Positions 13,222 through 40,344 of a stretch of DNA of 41,426 nucleotides are shown one piece after another (within the stretch, counting starts at the first letter, position 1; each line of letters starts with the position of its first letter). The DNA is from a virus. The stretch is from the IMG/VR virus record IMGVR_UViG_3300028914_000024, positions 1-41,426 of that record. One strand, written 5' to 3'. A model generated the notes under the pieces. The model ran no database searches. It worked only from the letters and a program-made list of their open reading frames with translations, and was not told the origin of the DNA. The position numbers and the translations under genes were made by a program.

Positions 13222-14673
13222 TTATTTACCTCCCTTGCTCATATCTTTAAAATCACTAAATGACATATCACTACCTGGATGTTCTTTTAAGTATTTCTTA
13301 TATGCATTCTTTTTTAATCTATCGTATAGTTTTGCACTTTCTCTACCTATTAGGCTTGTATATGTTTGGAATACTCTATCGTCACTAAAGTTTTTGCCTT
13401 TAGGGTTTATCTTTAAGCTATCTAAGAAATCTCTTTGCTCATCATAGTATATCATATAACTACCGCCTTTTGCAAGAGTTTCACCAGCTCTCCACATTGT
13501 TGGCTCGTTCATATGTTCCATTTGTTCAACAAAATCTTGTGGGTTGTCGTAATAATCTAGTATGTGAGCTTGTATGTTTTCACTTACTTCTTTTCTATTT
13601 GATGTGCCTTGAGTTTTTATCTCAGTTCTTTTTGGCAAATCTTCTTTAACTTTGTCCTTAGATGCACCGCTTCGTATTTTTTCATTCATATAATCACTTG
13701 TTGTTTTTGTCTCTTTATAATTTGTTTGATTTTTAGATGCATCGTATTTATCATTCATAATAAGAGTTTCGTGTTGCCAATCGTATATGCTTTCTTGATT
13801 ATATTTGTACATTAATTCTTTTGCATCGTCTAAGTTATCCGTATGGAAACTAGCCTCAGCATCACCGCCATATTTACCTGCATATACTTTGCCATCACAT
13901 TTGTCACGACATTCAGCAACTTTTTGAGCATATTCTTCATCACTATAAGTATCACTTGATTGTTGGAATGATACACTATAGCCTTTTTCAAAGCTAACGG
14001 GTTTTCCTGTTTCAACATCTAAAGTTACATTATCTTCTTTAGAGTTCTTTGCTACATCTGTTATTTTATCTCTATAGTTAGTTTTATCTTCTTTATCCCA
14101 ATAGTCTTTTATTTTGTTTTTGGTGCTTTCGTCTAATTCTTTGTTTATTATTTCATCTCTAGTATTTTTATCTTTGAGTTTATCTCTCCAAGATGCATCT
14201 CTTTTGGCACTTAATTCGTTTAATTTCTTTTCATCCTCAACTGTGTTCCCGCCAAACTCATCATATGCCTTTTCCATTTTTTTTCTATGTTCATTAAATT
14301 CTTTATCCGCTTTGTCAAATTCCGTTTCTCTTGTTTTTCCATTCTGCACATATTTATCACGAATACTAGCCCAATATTGTCTTTCAGTAGGTTGCATATT
14401 CTCTGATTGTTCTAGTTTGCTCACTGCTAAATTGTATTTATCATAATCACTTAAATCTTTGGTGTCCTCGTCTAATTTAGAGATTATTTCTTGTCTTTTA
14501 TCCATCGTTTCATTTATTTTTTTGCCTTTTTCTTCTTCAGTTAATTCTTCTTTTTTCTTTTTCTTGAATTTGCCACTTTCTTTCATAGCACTTGCTAAGT
14601 CTTGACCATCTTTAATAAATACCTTACGACCGCCGATAGTTCTCCATACACCACCTATATCATCTTTTGCCAT
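13222..14673 (-). CDS. Large charged polyvalent-type protein with N-terminal WxTIxGxxVFI motif
   Basis: 483 aa, K/E/D-rich. N-terminus GGVWRTIGGRKVFIKDGQDLASAM parallels the N-terminus of ORF 30255..30836. Confidence 0.7.
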   Translation of the reverse strand: MAKDDIGGVWRTIGGRKVFIKDGQDLASAMKESGKFKKKKKEELTEEEKGKKINETMDKRQEIISKLDEDTKDLSDYDKYNLAVSKLEQSENMQPTERQYWASIRDKYVQNGKTRETEFDKADKEFNEHRKKMEKAYDEFGGNTVEDEKKLNELSAKRDASWRDKLKDKNTRDEIINKELDESTKNKIKDYWDKEDKTNYRDKITDVAKNSKEDNVTLDVETGKPVSFEKGYSVSFQQSSDTYSDEEYAQKVAECRDKCDGKVYAGKYGGDAEASFHTDNLDDAKELMYKYNQESIYDWQHETLIMNDKYDASKNQTNYKETKTTSDYMNEKIRSGASKDKVKEDLPKRTEIKTQGTSNRKEVSENIQAHILDYYDNPQDFVEQMEHMNEPTMWRAGETLAKGGSYMIYYDEQRDFLDSLKINPKGKNFSDDRVFQTYTSLIGRESAKLYDRLKKNAYKKYLKEHPGSDMSFSDFKDMSKGGK

Positions 14674-14817: not shown

Positions 14818-15999
14818 TTATTTCTTGCTTTTTTTCTTTTTAGTAACTTTGTTTAATTCTTCAGCAATTACTTTAACATCTTCTAGTTCTAGTTTGATTG
14901 GTTTTACCTCTTCAAGAATTTCAACCGCATTGTGTTCCTTTAAGTATTCAGCTCTTTCTTTTTCACATTCCCATTCACTTTTGTTTGCTACTCTTAGTTC
15001 TTTCCCCTCTACATCTTGAAAGTTAATTAATGCTCTTACTCTTACCATTTTTTCTTCTTCCTCCTTATAGTCTTTAATTATTTTTTCTTTATCTATCTTA
15101 CCAGTATAATCTAAAAACTTTAACCAATCTTCTAAAGAATGATTATCATACTCTTTGCATATTGGTATTGTTAATATCTTTTTTATATCAAAGTTCATAT
15201 CTAATGGTACAACATAACCATTTACACCATCTTTAATAAGTTCAGTACAACCACCTACATCTGTTACTATACAAGGCACTTTATACTGTAAGCTCTCTTG
15301 AACTGTGTAGGGCAAACCTTCACTATCACTAAGTAAAACAGTGTAATCGGCATCTGCTAAGTAATCCCATATGTCATATCTTTGTTTCCAAAAATGTACC
15401 TCTTCATAATCACATTTATACATCGTTGAATTTGTAAATATATTCCATTCAAATTTTATTCTTGCTTTCTTCATCATATCCATAAGTTTTAAGCATCTAT
15501 TCCAACCTTTGGCTGGGTCTAATCTAGTACAGCTAATTAGATGCAATACTTTATTTGTTTCCCTTTTTGGCAGTAATATATTTTTAATTGTTGTTGGATG
15601 GTCGTGCAATACCTCATCACTCATTTTACTAACAAATTCACCACAACCAACAATTTCTTTTATTCCCATATCGGCATATTGTTGATATAATAAGCCTTTA
15701 TCTAACAAATATTTATAATTAGCGTGTCGCATCTCTATCATTCTTTTAGCTTTTATATTTTTAGGTATTGTACCCCATACACTATTGCGGATGAAAATAT
15801 CACATTCATAAGTTTTGCCTTCTTCATACTTTTCCATCTTTGCAAGTTTAGACATTTTTCTAAGCCTTATATCGTCACCACCGCAATACAATATTGTTAT
15901 ATCAAAAAAATTTCTTAACCACCAACACCAATTATATGCCATTGTTTCCACTCCACCAATTTGGCAAAAATGTGATTGATAAAATATTATTTTTTTCAT
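14818..15999 (-). CDS. Glycosyltransferase, GT-B fold (GT4/group-1-like) with a C-terminal extension of about 85 aa
   Basis: Motif SDSEGLPYTVQESLQYKVPCIVTDVGGCTELIKDGVNGYVV is typical of group-1 GTs. Start overlaps the upstream stop (ATGA). Confidence 0.8.
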   Translation of the reverse strand: MKKIIFYQSHFCQIGGVETMAYNWCWWLRNFFDITILYCGGDDIRLRKMSKLAKMEKYEEGKTYECDIFIRNSVWGTIPKNIKAKRMIEMRHANYKYLLDKGLLYQQYADMGIKEIVGCGEFVSKMSDEVLHDHPTTIKNILLPKRETNKVLHLISCTRLDPAKGWNRCLKLMDMMKKARIKFEWNIFTNSTMYKCDYEEVHFWKQRYDIWDYLADADYTVLLSDSEGLPYTVQESLQYKVPCIVTDVGGCTELIKDGVNGYVVPLDMNFDIKKILTIPICKEYDNHSLEDWLKFLDYTGKIDKEKIIKDYKEEEEKMVRVRALINFQDVEGKELRVANKSEWECEKERAEYLKEHNAVEILEEVKPIKLELEDVKVIAEELNKVTKKKKSKK

Positions 16000-36758: not shown

Positions 36759-36941
36759 TTAGTAATCTCGTTCATCTTCATTTTTTAAAAACTCGTAATG
36801 TTCCTCTAAAATCTCGTAATCATCACATAATTCTTCAAATGCTCTATAAAATTCATCTAGTGTTATAAAATCTTTGTTATTAAAATATCTTTCAGCAACC
36901 CATTTTGCCATATCTTCGGTTCTAATATAAACTTCATCCAT
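36759..36941 (-). CDS. Small highly acidic protein
   Basis: 60 aa, 20 of them Asp/Glu. Coupled to the annealase gene (ATGA... overlap at 36941). Confidence 0.55.
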   Translation of the reverse strand: MDEVYIRTEDMAKWVAERYFNNKDFITLDEFYRAFEELCDDYEILEEHYEFLKNEDERDY

Positions 36942-37651
36942 TATTGTAACCTCTTATCTAAAAGTTCTATTGCCTCTTTAACTTGTTCATAAGTCATATT
37001 GTCATCACTATCGGCATTAAAATATTTATAAAATTTTTCTCTATCAAATTTGTCGTCTTTTTCTTCGTTAGCAACTATCATTTTTTTCATAGTTTCCGTT
37101 AGCTTAGTTAATTCCTTGTCTTTTTCTTTTGATAGTTGGCTAAATCTAATATGGTTTTTGTTATCACGAATAATTAAGTCTTTTATGTTGTCTTTTTCGT
37201 CATAGTCAATTATTTCTACCCAAAAGTATGTTTTAGTTGTATATTTGCCTTTGTCATTTTCAAAAAACTCTGGTTTATCTTTTACTCCCATATCTTTTCT
37301 AGGAAATGTAATAATACTAGGGCTTGAATAAAGTTCTCTACCTATGCCCCAATTAACACAGGCTCTTTTAAAACTATCACTTGCTAAGCCTTTTTCTTCT
37401 TCAGCAAAACTTTCTTTTCCTGTATCTTCTTTTGTTATCCATTGTGACTTTTCAGCATCCCAAATTGATACAATGCAATTTGCATTATCTCTTGTATGCT
37501 CTCTTTTCCAATTCATTGCCCCTACTGTCTCGTCTAGGATGTTCATATCGCATCTTGCATCTTTGTACAACAACATCGTGCAATAATTACTTGCTATTTG
37601 ATTAATTCTTACATCAATCTCATCAGCTCTTAAATTTCTAAACATTTTCAT
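36941..37651 (-). CDS. Rad52/Sak-type single-strand annealing protein
   Basis: LLYKDARCDMNILDETVGAMNWKRE...KGLASDSFKRACVNWGIGRELY is the Rad52-type SSAP signature. Confidence 0.75.
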   Translation of the reverse strand: MKMFRNLRADEIDVRINQIASNYCTMLLYKDARCDMNILDETVGAMNWKREHTRDNANCIVSIWDAEKSQWITKEDTGKESFAEEEKGLASDSFKRACVNWGIGRELYSSPSIITFPRKDMGVKDKPEFFENDKGKYTTKTYFWVEIIDYDEKDNIKDLIIRDNKNHIRFSQLSKEKDKELTKLTETMKKMIVANEEKDDKFDREKFYKYFNADSDDNMTYEQVKEAIELLDKRLQ

Positions 37652-37654
37652 TTT

Positions 37655-38842
37655 TTAATCTACCTCCTCAATGTCAAATATAGAAAATTGTTTTTGTTTT
37701 TGACCGCTTTTTTTATTAAAGCTAATCCCATCCAATTTATGTTTCATACTACAACCATCACACATAAAATGATTGTAACGCCCACAATAACTGTCAACAT
37801 AATCTTTAAACTTAGTCACTTTTTTAATTCTTAAATCACCATTGACACAATTAGCTACATTAGTTTGTGGCAACCAAATCTTTTCATCATCCGCTATTTT
37901 TTTATTGCCTAAATGCTCGGTTGTAAAATATGTTAAATTGTATTTTAAATAATTATCAAAGTTTTCGTTTATTGTATCAACACCACAACAACACCTTGAT
38001 TGGCTTAAATAATGTAAGTCATTATCACCAACACCAACTAAAGTTTTATCTAAATGCTTTTTTAATATTTCAATGTTTCTCGTTTTTGTTTGTACATCTA
38101 ATTCTAAGTTCCGCATAATTGATGTTCTTTTATATTTGTAAATTTCATCTTTAAATAATTCTTTTATTGTTGGATTGTCGGTATTGATTTTCAAATGTTC
38201 AATTGTAACATAACTGGCAATGCCATTTATTGTATCACACAACTCTATAGCTTTGTCAAGGTCTATTACAGGCTGTATTCTTATGCTACACCAAAAACCT
38301 TTTGACCTTAATTCTTTTAAAAAGTTTATTCTTTGAGTTGCGGTTGGGCTATTATCCTCGTACTTTTTTACCCACTCATCATCTTTACCAATTAAACTTA
38401 TTTGGAAACAATGAATGCTAGGGTCTAATATTTCCCAATATTCATTAGGCAAATAACATTGCTTAGTTGAAAATATCAATGGATAATTATACTTGTTGCT
38501 TAACTCAATTAATTTGTAATTTAATTTCAGTTTAAATTCTATAGGCTGAAAAGGGTCGGCTAACCCACCACAATGTATAGGTACTCTATGTCTTAATAAT
38601 TCAATAACAATGTTTGATGTTTTCTCGTTTGTTTCAAATGCCTTATAAAATAAATCTTTAATAATTTCAAATCGTGCATATGAATATTCAAAATCTTCTT
38701 GACCACCTATATGCCTTGCAAAACAATATTTACATCCAAAACTACAAAACTTATAAAAGTCTAGTCTAAATGGGTTACCACAAAATCTAAATTGACTGCT
38801 TAAAGCTAATGGGCTTTTATAATCGTCTTTAAGTTCTTTCAC
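37655..38842 (-). CDS. Radical SAM enzyme (SplB / COG1533 DNA-repair-photolyase-like architecture)
   Basis: CxxxCxxC at residues 33-40 (CSFGCKYC, nt 38723..38746), followed by FARH. Downstream GGLADPFQP and TIM-barrel-like periodicity. Extra C-terminal Cys clusters (CCCG, CDGC). Confidence 0.75.
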   Translation of the reverse strand: MKELKDDYKSPLALSSQFRFCGNPFRLDFYKFCSFGCKYCFARHIGGQEDFEYSYARFEIIKDLFYKAFETNEKTSNIVIELLRHRVPIHCGGLADPFQPIEFKLKLNYKLIELSNKYNYPLIFSTKQCYLPNEYWEILDPSIHCFQISLIGKDDEWVKKYEDNSPTATQRINFLKELRSKGFWCSIRIQPVIDLDKAIELCDTINGIASYVTIEHLKINTDNPTIKELFKDEIYKYKRTSIMRNLELDVQTKTRNIEILKKHLDKTLVGVGDNDLHYLSQSRCCCGVDTINENFDNYLKYNLTYFTTEHLGNKKIADDEKIWLPQTNVANCVNGDLRIKKVTKFKDYVDSYCGRYNHFMCDGCSMKHKLDGISFNKKSGQKQKQFSIFDIEEVD

Positions 38843-39404
38843 TTTCTACCTCCTCTGCATAACTATTTATCATAGCTTGTTCTGCTTCTTCTTTGCTTAA
38901 ATCTATTTCACCAAAATAGGCTTGTATTAATCTTTTCTTACCGCTGTTATCTGGCAACTTGTTTTTAATTAATTCTAACATTGCATCGTACTTATCCCAA
39001 AAATTTTGTTCACTCATATTTTCTAGTTGTTCTCTAGTAACATCTTTTTTTAAATATTTTTTCATTTCTCTAATGACATAATCAATGGCATTGCAACGTC
39101 TTATATGTTCATCATAGTTAAAATAATCTAATGCCTTACCACAATTAGCACATACGATAGTATATTTTCTTACCGCATCTTTATCTTTTGTTTTTAATAT
39201 ACCTGCTAATATGTAATTTAGTTTTGGTGGATAATCTCCATAGGTTTCACTTTTTAAATGTTTGTCTAGTCTCTCATTAACATCAGATGCATCATAATCT
39301 TTTAATTGCTTATACCATTCCTCAATTTTAAAATCGTCAACTATAAAATCGTTGTAATATTGTTTTATTCTTTTTAAAAACAAATTAGTTTCTTGTACTG
39401 TCAT
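38829..39404 (-). CDS. Helicase-loader-like replication protein (G39P-like N-terminus)
   Basis: FLKRIKQYYNDFIVDDFKIEEWYKQLKDYD pattern, CANCG zinc-ribbon-like element, and position after the replisome organizer. Confidence 0.45.
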   Translation of the reverse strand: MTVQETNLFLKRIKQYYNDFIVDDFKIEEWYKQLKDYDASDVNERLDKHLKSETYGDYPPKLNYILAGILKTKDKDAVRKYTIVCANCGKALDYFNYDEHIRRCNAIDYVIREMKKYLKKDVTREQLENMSEQNFWDKYDAMLELIKNKLPDNSGKKRLIQAYFGEIDLSKEEAEQAMINSYAEEVESERT

Positions 39405-40315: not shown

Positions 40316-40344
40316 ATTATATATCATTATAAATTGCTTGTCAA
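40316..40344 (-). promoter_or_regulatory. Consensus sigma-A promoter (early operon)
   Basis: Minus strand TTGACA-17 nt-TATAAT, both hexamers perfect. Confidence 0.8.

Follow-up and report, generated by a model that had tools for sequence, protein, structure and literature searches.

We report a radical S-adenosylmethionine (SAM) enzyme encoded in the virus record IMGVR_UViG_3300028914_000024, whose complete 41,426-bp sequence with direct terminal repeats is referred to here as the window. The gene (37655..38842, minus strand) opens with a GTG start codon at 38842, preceded by AGGAGG, and translates into 395 residues. Judged by its motifs, the enzyme is a radical SAM protein of the SplB/COG1533-like clade, and it belongs to a family that is almost exclusively phage-borne and without a characterised member. 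Its C-terminus looks like a docking peptide for the DNA sliding clamp. We regard it as probable that the enzyme acts on DNA and is tethered to the clamp. Our leading, if still tentative, reading is that of a clamp-tethered, phage-specific radical SAM enzyme with post-replicative modification of DNA bases as the most likely outcome.

Placement Within the Radical SAM Superfamily

The CxxxCxxC triad, CSFGCKYC at residues 33–40 (C33, C37, and C40; 38723..38746, minus strand), lies near the N-terminus exactly where a preliminary description of the window had placed it. As read from the sequence, it is the predicted [4Fe-4S]/SAM site, and its three cysteines are invariant in 44/44 aligned homologues. 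The COG1533-type layout is likewise present, with GC..GCxYCFAR followed by GG.ADPFQP.E at residues 92–102. The signature DPFQP within the latter (residues 96–100; 38543..38557, minus strand) contains the invariant D96, P97, F98, and Q99 and aligns with TDPFLPIE of gp53 from the Pseudomonas phage M6 in an hhalign comparison. The window protein scores 25.9 bits against the PF04055 Radical_SAM model, compared with a gathering cut-off of 29.5, and most homologues carry a precomputed PF04055 match.

The best NCBIfam model for the window protein is the PA0069 family (NF033668; E = 7.6e-13, 48.2 bits vs. a curated cut-off of 360), followed by the Rv2578c family (NF038135; E = 1.5e-7, 30.8 bits vs. 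a cut-off of 430), and both matches are confined to about residues 26–206. All of the 44 homologues (44/44) match the PA0069 and Rv2578c models (best E-values of 4.8e-19 and 7e-14), 17/44 weakly match the spore photoproduct lyase (SPL) model TIGR04070 (best E = 2.6e-5), and a few give weak sub-threshold matches to Cfr and viperin models. TIGR04070 gave no match to the window protein at E ≤ 1. When SPL was sought among PDB sequences, neither phmmer with the protein nor the family profile returned anything meaningful. An hhalign comparison with a B. subtilis SplB sequence not taken from a database record was not significant (probability 2.9%), and the same comparison provided no reliable alignment for the hydrogen-donor cysteine of SPL (C140/C141) and its relay tyrosine. 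Because the scores fall far below the cut-offs, the window protein is placed by sequence outside the SPL, PA0069, and Rv2578c families. The SplB/COG1533 assignment of the preliminary description was right at the level of the clade, as borne out by the motifs, by the PA0069 and Rv2578c models, and by SPL being the best fold match (see below).

The family is large. One word-indexed search returned 518 homologues of the enzyme, and clustering at 50% identity gave 1,266 clusters at E ≤ 1e-3, of which 77 were at E ≤ 1e-30. Nearly all homologues lack names, many reside on phage-sized contigs, and no source provided a name for the homologue clusters. Among 185,579 prokaryote species, each represented by one genome, relatives of at least 40% identity were found on only six contigs of metagenome-assembled genomes. 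Distant full-length relatives occur in Bacteroidales prophages, adjoining terminase genes. A public contig of 41,440 bp is predicted to encode an identical 395-residue protein, and the INPHARED phage genomes yielded three weak tblastn matches only and no match at the DNA level. The PHROG matched by the window protein is a function-unknown family, PADLOC gave no match, and we found no description of this phage enzyme family in the literature searched. We also observed a distant full-length member of 428 residues on the chromosome of Psychromonas sp. PT13 (L107:5263-7278, plus strand; retrieved loci are designated L and a number), accompanied by a putative membrane protein of 242 residues, in a non-phage spot between LptF/G-like permeases and a transposase.

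The phage M6 gp53 is an SPL-like N-alpha- to C-alpha-glycinylthymidine isomerase that was shown to be active on polymerised DNA (PMC8989533). The family profile aligns with gp53 at an hhalign probability of 91.7% (E = 7.9e-7), over the core only (residues 33–194). Both enzymes are phage-encoded and share this homologous core together with the CxxxCxFC and DPF(Q/L)PIE motifs, and some relatives of the window gene resemble the M6 pathway in having a gene for a pyridoxal phosphate (PLP)-dependent enzyme immediately upstream. However, the regions of gp53 outside the core do not align with the window enzyme, and gp53 has neither the CC motif nor the QxxLF tail described below. In addition, gp53 requires pre-replicative 5-hydroxymethyldeoxyuridine (5-hmdU), a kinase, and a glycine-adding enzyme, whereas the window genome lacks a thymidylate-synthase-like hydroxymethylase.

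Predicted Three-Dimensional Structure

We built an AlphaFold2 model on the 44-sequence alignment and compared it with the PDB by Foldseek. The model has a pLDDT of 92.1 and a pTM of 0.91, and in it the enzyme shows the overall SPL fold. The top PDB matches are six SPL entries (E = 7e-8 to 5e-7, TM 0.49–0.59, 13% identity), with 4fhg, 4rh0, and 4fhc at the head and the best match (E = 7e-8) reaching TM 0.50/0.57 over about 290 columns. Enzymes activating pyruvate formate-lyase (PFL) form the second-best fold group (E about 4e-6), followed by other radical SAM enzymes; more than 40 radical SAM structures were matched at E ≤ 1e-3. Elp3 ranks only 47th–49th, and the viperin and Cfr folds lie far below SPL.

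The window enzyme and SPL (SplB; PDB 4FHC-4FHG, 4RH0; TIGR04070) are alike in the radical SAM partial barrel and the N-terminal CxxxCxYC, and SPL acts on DNA as a single enzyme, in keeping with the solo gene of the window. Unlike SPL, with which it shares 13% identity, the window enzyme has an additional Cys21, a CC(C) motif, a Cys-rich C-terminal domain of roughly 100 residues, and a clamp-type tail, and it is phage-borne and accessory.

Cysteines of the Phage Branch

Two cysteine elements outside the triad set the family apart. Cys21, located in QFRFCGNPFR (codon 38780..38782, minus strand), is family-specific and invariant in 44/44 homologues; it is kept in distant paralogues, and its equivalent is missing in cellular PA0069-like proteins. 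The CCC stretch at residues 284–286, embedded in SQSRCCCG(V/I)D (37985..37993, minus strand), is conserved in 91, 100, and 100% of the 44 homologues, and a CC pair is kept by every phage-type relative, even at 24% identity, and by none of the cellular COG1533 proteins. The preliminary description had pointed out extra C-terminal cysteine clusters. This holds for CCC, whereas the cysteines of its second cluster, CDGC (C361 and C364), are conserved in only 36–45% of the 44 homologues and are not family-wide. By these sequence criteria, Cys21 and the invariant CC(C) define a phage branch of the COG1533-like clade. Cys21 and Cys284-286 may form a second Fe-S cluster, a zinc site, or a thiol/radical relay.

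The cellular PA0069/Rv2578c COG1533 proteins are the closest sequence models of the window family, with which they share GC..GCxYCFAR and DP(F/Y)QP.E; they are "SplB-like" proteins without an assigned substrate and are SOS-linked. They align with the family over the core only. In contrast to the cellular proteins, which lack the Cys21 equivalent and the CC motif, the window family is nearly confined to phage contigs. Intein-bearing variants exist on both sides, in the window family and in the Rv2578c group (NF038136). The family member of this kind, a 697-residue protein (L041:1029-3122, plus strand), is interrupted immediately ahead of the triad's third cysteine (…GCDY|C-intein-N|CFAN…) by an intein that has a LAGLIDADG-type endonuclease segment; this arrangement parallels the NCBI "intein-containing Rv2578c" class. 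A single phage contig (L022:4070-9055, plus strand) encodes three tandem paralogues of 369, 467, and 352 residues, about 24% identical, all of which retain the Cys21 equivalent and the CC motif.

C-Terminal Tail and the Sliding Clamp

The protein terminates in ...KQKQFSIFDIEEVD. Within the peptide GQKQKQFSIFDIEEVD, the stretch QFSIF (residues 385–389 of 395; 37676..37690, minus strand) fits QxxLF as a candidate β-clamp binding motif and is followed by an acidic tail. The bacterial clamp-binding consensus is QL[S/D]LF, or more broadly QxxLF, and it is C-terminal in B. subtilis PolC (PMC12309361). As in such clamp-tethered bacterial proteins, the C-terminus of the window enzyme is predicted to offer a short QxxLF-type peptide preceded by a variable linker. 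The pLDDT of the model drops to 78 and then to 55 in this tail.

Close homologues end in Q-x-[SNDT]-[IL]-F followed by acidic residues, and in other clades the protein closes with QLSLFD or QLNLFD, or has -[KR]xLF at its very end. Across the 44 homologues, the tail positions are occupied by Q in 25/44, by L or I in 37/44, and by F or W in 37/44. The linker ahead of the motif is variable and unalignable between clades, and the motif is present in separate clades. A tail was scored where QxxLF fell among the final 20 residues or where the protein ended in [LIM]F. By this definition, 116 of 298 distinct family members carry the tail, compared with 13 of 744 other open reading frames (ORFs) of at least 150 residues in the same loci (odds ratio 36, Fisher p = 5e-56, for sequence counts ignoring kinship); among internal 20-residue windows, 0.7% match.

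Gene order in relatives also links the enzyme to the clamp. In phages that have a replisome of their own, its gene is directly flanked by DNA polymerase A on one side and by a β-clamp homologue on the other (L002/3, L005/6, L007/8, L018, and L039), or is no more than three genes away from a clamp homologue (L021 and L033/35/36). The clamp-proximal copies, from about seven distinct loci, all end in xLF. A DNA-directed role, proposed in the preliminary description in the form of a DNA or nucleotide modification step, is strengthened by the clamp-type tail and by this synteny. Neither a β clamp nor PolA or another polymerase was found when sought in the complete window genome, and therefore the docking target would be the host DnaN. 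The MuC protein of phage Mu, which uses the host β clamp, is a precedent for a phage protein exploiting the clamp (PMC12867686). We found no radical SAM enzyme with a clamp-binding motif in the literature searched.

The 13 tail-bearing control ORFs are nearly all DNA enzymes and include two Mom proteins, two N6/N4 methylases, a PAPS-reductase/DUF3440 protein, a primase, RecU, and nucleases. A third Mom-like protein, encoded two genes from a 72%-identical enzyme homologue, ends in QMSIFDLD. The tails suggest that phages may tether DNA-modification enzymes to the sliding clamp as a general habit. Clamp-type tails (QxxLF or xLF) were recorded for the Mom-family proteins at L001:5227-5997, L027:4668-5321, and L254:6598-7431, for the N6/N4 DNA methylases at L027:7852-8478 and L039:6072-6980, and for the PAPS-reductase/DUF3440 protein at L044:12923-14131. 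A distant clade on large phage contigs of 80–180 kb (L048-L088), about 33% identical to the window enzyme, ends in SSPFSPKF(L/Q)Y and is located near the anaerobic ribonucleotide reductase genes NrdD/NrdG.

An Accessory Cassette in an Early Operon

The window genome, from a gut phage, encodes terminase, portal, and tail genes and an M23/ChW-type endolysin, and is therefore that of a siphovirus-size phage, with Clostridia as the probable host to judge from the ChW endolysin. Upstream of the radical SAM gene lies a helicase-loader-like gene (38829..39404, minus strand; phrog_2289 helicase loader, E = 1.5e-8), with which the start of the radical SAM gene overlaps by 14 nt. Downstream, its ORF stops 4 nt ahead of the ATG of an Erf-like single-strand annealing protein (36941..37651, minus strand; phrog_14970, E = 3e-68; phrog_1097 Erf-like, E = 3e-16). 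Both the overlap with the loader gene and the annealase as the next gene had been stated in the preliminary description. PHROG matches identify further recombination-type genes nearby, an SSB-like gene and a resolvase. A match to the sigma-70 promoter, TTGACA-17-TATAAT (40316..40344, minus strand), agrees with the consensus at 12/12 positions and, as a consensus match only, heads the putative early operon. No terminator-like site was found on the minus strand between the promoter (40344..40316) and 34500, which fits a single early operon of the radical SAM gene with replication genes. The expectation that the enzyme is expressed with genes of DNA metabolism is supported to the extent that this layout predicts co-transcription.

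The enzyme had also been described as embedded in the replication/recombination module, which turned out to be overstated. We fetched 80 loci with a homologue of the Erf-like annealase, and none of the 71 scorable ones (0/71) carries the radical SAM enzyme. In the closest sister phages (L172 and L173), the flanking genes are 81–85% identical overall, with 84% for the loader and 81–82% for the Erf-like protein, and the loader is joined straight to Erf without an enzyme gene. The ORF in the window is flanked by an 11-nt direct repeat, GAGGAGGTAGA, with the left copy (38845..38855, minus strand) at the loader/enzyme junction, including the ribosome-binding site, and the right copy (37659..37669, minus strand) at the enzyme/annealase junction. 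The pattern occurs twice only in the window, compared with 0.01 expected by chance, and the sisters have a single copy at their junction. These junctions mark the gene as an apparent 1,186-bp insertion, or a deletion in the sisters, at microhomology. Because the sisters lack the gene and the 11-nt repeat flanks it, the gene is a mobile, dispensable accessory cassette, apart from the core replication/recombination machinery. In relatives with 72–79% identity, it occupies other positions among small early genes. The repeat GAGGAGGTAGA in itself illustrates how modules are exchanged at a microhomology of Shine-Dalgarno type.

Gene Neighbourhoods of Relatives

A survey of the genomic context in related phages, as recommended in the preliminary description, found the clamp-adjacent loci and enzyme-less sisters described above, and neighbours associated with DNA modification. 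Radical SAM, PLP-dependent, and acetyltransferase enzymes are the classes "sculpting" thymidine hypermodifications (PMC8989533). Three clusters of relatives (P0104, P0108, and P0120) have N-terminal GNAT fusions, and the window protein has no GNAT domain; the order is opposite to that of Elp3, which also combines radical SAM and GNAT domains. A PLP-dependent (PALP-like) gene stands at position -1 in L002/L003 and L015/L016 only, and no such gene was found next to the window gene, the neighbours of which are the loader and Erf. SAM synthetase genes are immediately adjacent to the enzyme gene in some relatives, and PAPS-reductase-like genes, methylases, and Mom-like genes lie near it in others, the Mom-like genes at a distance of five genes or fewer in five loci. 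The distant prophage clade has DNA-glucosyltransferase-like, ParB-like, and P-loop kinase neighbours.

A PP-loop ATPase gene lies directly upstream of the enzyme in four loci and may encode a partner of it, to judge by this arrangement. The ATPase comprises 335–365 residues (L028:6943-7989, L023:3519-4526, L030:5287-6384, and L040:5523-6569), has CFSGGKDS and, at the C-terminus, CGSCYKC, and follows two clamp-loader genes; no family of Pfam or PHROG matched it above threshold. The candidate c22, the 348-residue product of a gene preceding that of the enzyme in L023 and L028-30, was considered as a clamp and rejected by hhalign; its motifs are those of the PP-loop ATPase.

A search for a thymidylate-synthase-like hydroxymethylase (PF00303) gave no match in the complete window genome or in three 100%-complete relatives. 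The window has a GT1-family glycosyltransferase gene (14818-15999, minus strand) with a weak match to "GT4 in conflict systems", situated between the tail and lysis regions; its neighbour (13222-14673, minus strand) encodes a 483-residue protein without a family match. The proposal that the enzyme feeds these glycosyltransferases was abandoned, as the records of five enzyme-carrying relatives, one of them a 94%-complete genome, contain no GT1 homologue, and the pair is not inherited together with the radical SAM gene.

Discussion

Just two radical SAM enzymes with DNA as their substrate were known at the time of the cited report, SPL in repair and the phage M6 gp53 in hypermodification (PMC8989533). 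The following course of events may be envisaged for the window enzyme. Made from the early replication operon, as the gene arrangement implies, the enzyme would dock with its C-terminal QFSIF on the host β sliding clamp, which would put it on newly replicated phage DNA. The [4Fe-4S] cluster at C33/C37/C40 would cleave SAM to generate the 5'-deoxyadenosyl radical typical of the superfamily, and this radical would take a hydrogen from a DNA base, the target probably being the C5-methyl or methylene of thymine as in the two characterised DNA-acting relatives. Cys21 and Cys284-286 could serve as a second metal site or as a radical/thiol relay. The resulting covalent base modification would shield the phage DNA from host nucleases, with the gene presumably functioning as a stand-alone cassette on ordinary DNA. 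We give less credence to a more specific variant, in which the enzyme would fill, without oxygen, the role of the phage TET/JBP-type thymine dioxygenases; riding the clamp behind the fork, it would remove a hydrogen from the C5-methyl group of thymine, or of 5-methylcytosine, in ordinary duplex DNA and use Cys21/Cys284-286 to oxidise or trap the allyl radical.

Several observations weigh against base modification by a clamp-tethered enzyme. When clustered at 60% identity, only 24 of 135 clusters have the tail, the enrichment figure above ignoring shared ancestry, and a clade at 52–59% identity lacks it. QFSIF itself is non-canonical, with I for L at position 4 and F at position 2. The association with Mom-like genes (5/91 vs. 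0/80 loci) is suggestive, not statistically secure. Mom, an N6/N4 methylase, a thymidylate-synthase-like hydroxymethylase, and a clamp were sought in the window genome and not found; with no hydroxymethylase, Mom, or N6/N4 methylase, the enzyme must therefore do its work unaided, whether the substrate is canonical DNA or a lesion. We know of no precedent for a single enzyme doing such chemistry on canonical DNA. Finally, docking on the clamp would be just as fitting for a repair enzyme, and the SplB-like genes of cells are under SOS control (PMC8565304; PMC3765255).

The last two points lead to DNA repair as a possible, though less likely, function, in which a radical SAM lyase recruited by the clamp would directly undo a lesion in phage DNA that is entering the cell or being replicated, and would need neither light nor oxygen to do so. 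Candidate lesions are a thymine dimer resembling spore photoproduct, arising in densely packed capsid DNA, or another intra- or inter-strand crosslink. SPL is the closest solved fold, 17/44 homologues weakly match its model, and SPL is likewise encoded by a solo gene. Cellular SplB-like genes occur in SOS regulons and repair neighbourhoods (PMC8565304; PMC3765255), archaeal ones adjoin the PCNA-binding NreB (PMC4929162), clamp-binding motifs are typical of repair proteins, and the window gene adjoins recombination genes (Erf, SSB-like, and resolvase). However, repair of spore photoproduct in particular, as raised in the preliminary description, gained no specific support: the SPL model gave no match to the window protein at E ≤ 1, no SPL came up when PDB sequences were searched with the family profile, and the hhalign comparison with the SplB sequence (2.9%) was not significant. 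The diagnostic Cys21/CC motif is missing in SPL-type and PA0069-type proteins, and the anaerobes of gut and rumen that serve as hosts are exposed to little UV. SPL regenerates SAM, so that a dedicated SAM synthetase would be unneeded. Within the reading of a DNA-acting, clamp-tethered enzyme, we favour modification over repair because the GNAT fusions and the SAM synthetase, PLP, PP-loop, and Mom neighbours in relatives fit modification better.

A substrate other than DNA, such as a nucleotide, tRNA or rRNA, a host metabolite, or a defence signal handled in a viperin- or Cfr-like manner, with the tail serving another interaction, appears improbable to us. Radical SAM folds are versatile, a few homologues give the weak Cfr and viperin matches, the window phage has no recognised partner gene for DNA modification, and in being an accessory cassette the gene resembles many counter-defence genes. 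Yet the closest relatives of the enzyme, in sequence as well as in fold, are all linked to DNA (SPL, M6 gp53, and SOS-regulated COG1533), the viperin and Cfr folds fall far below SPL, and PADLOC found no match. A role directed at a metabolite gained no positive support. The tail, moreover, fits the clamp motif, co-varies with adjacent clamp genes, and is common to DNA enzymes, not metabolic ones. Least credible by far is a housekeeping-type activase of anaerobic ribonucleotide reductase or pyruvate formate-lyase, acting on a glycyl-radical enzyme of host or phage, which the preliminary description had named as a case that would speak against it. By fold, the group of PFL-activating enzymes comes second (E about 4e-6), and distant jumbo-phage relatives are near NrdD/NrdG genes; those phages, however, already have a separate, typical NrdG. 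Neither the window protein nor any of the 44 homologues matches the NCBIfam activase models (NrdG/PflA type), no NrdD was found in the complete window genome, and a 395-residue protein with a conserved Cys-rich C-terminal domain is unlike activases of roughly 200–250 residues.

The enzyme family described here is large and phage-borne, and it stands out by its diagnostic cysteines, its frequent clamp-type tail, and its solo-cassette form in phages relying on the host replisome and on ordinary nucleotides. If DNA modification is its function, the family would represent an anaerobic single-enzyme route to a new base modification, and phages would tether modification enzymes to the clamp, resembling DNMT1-PCNA. 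In eukaryotes, DNMT1 is tethered to PCNA. Should the enzyme be a counterpart of the TET/JBP-type dioxygenases, a new C5-substituted base would be made by a single enzyme without a modified nucleotide precursor, and phages of strict anaerobes would hide their DNA from restriction in this manner. If the function is DNA repair instead, the widespread non-SPL "SplB-like" proteins would at last have a substrate. Under either reading, sister phages lacking the cassette offer a natural control.

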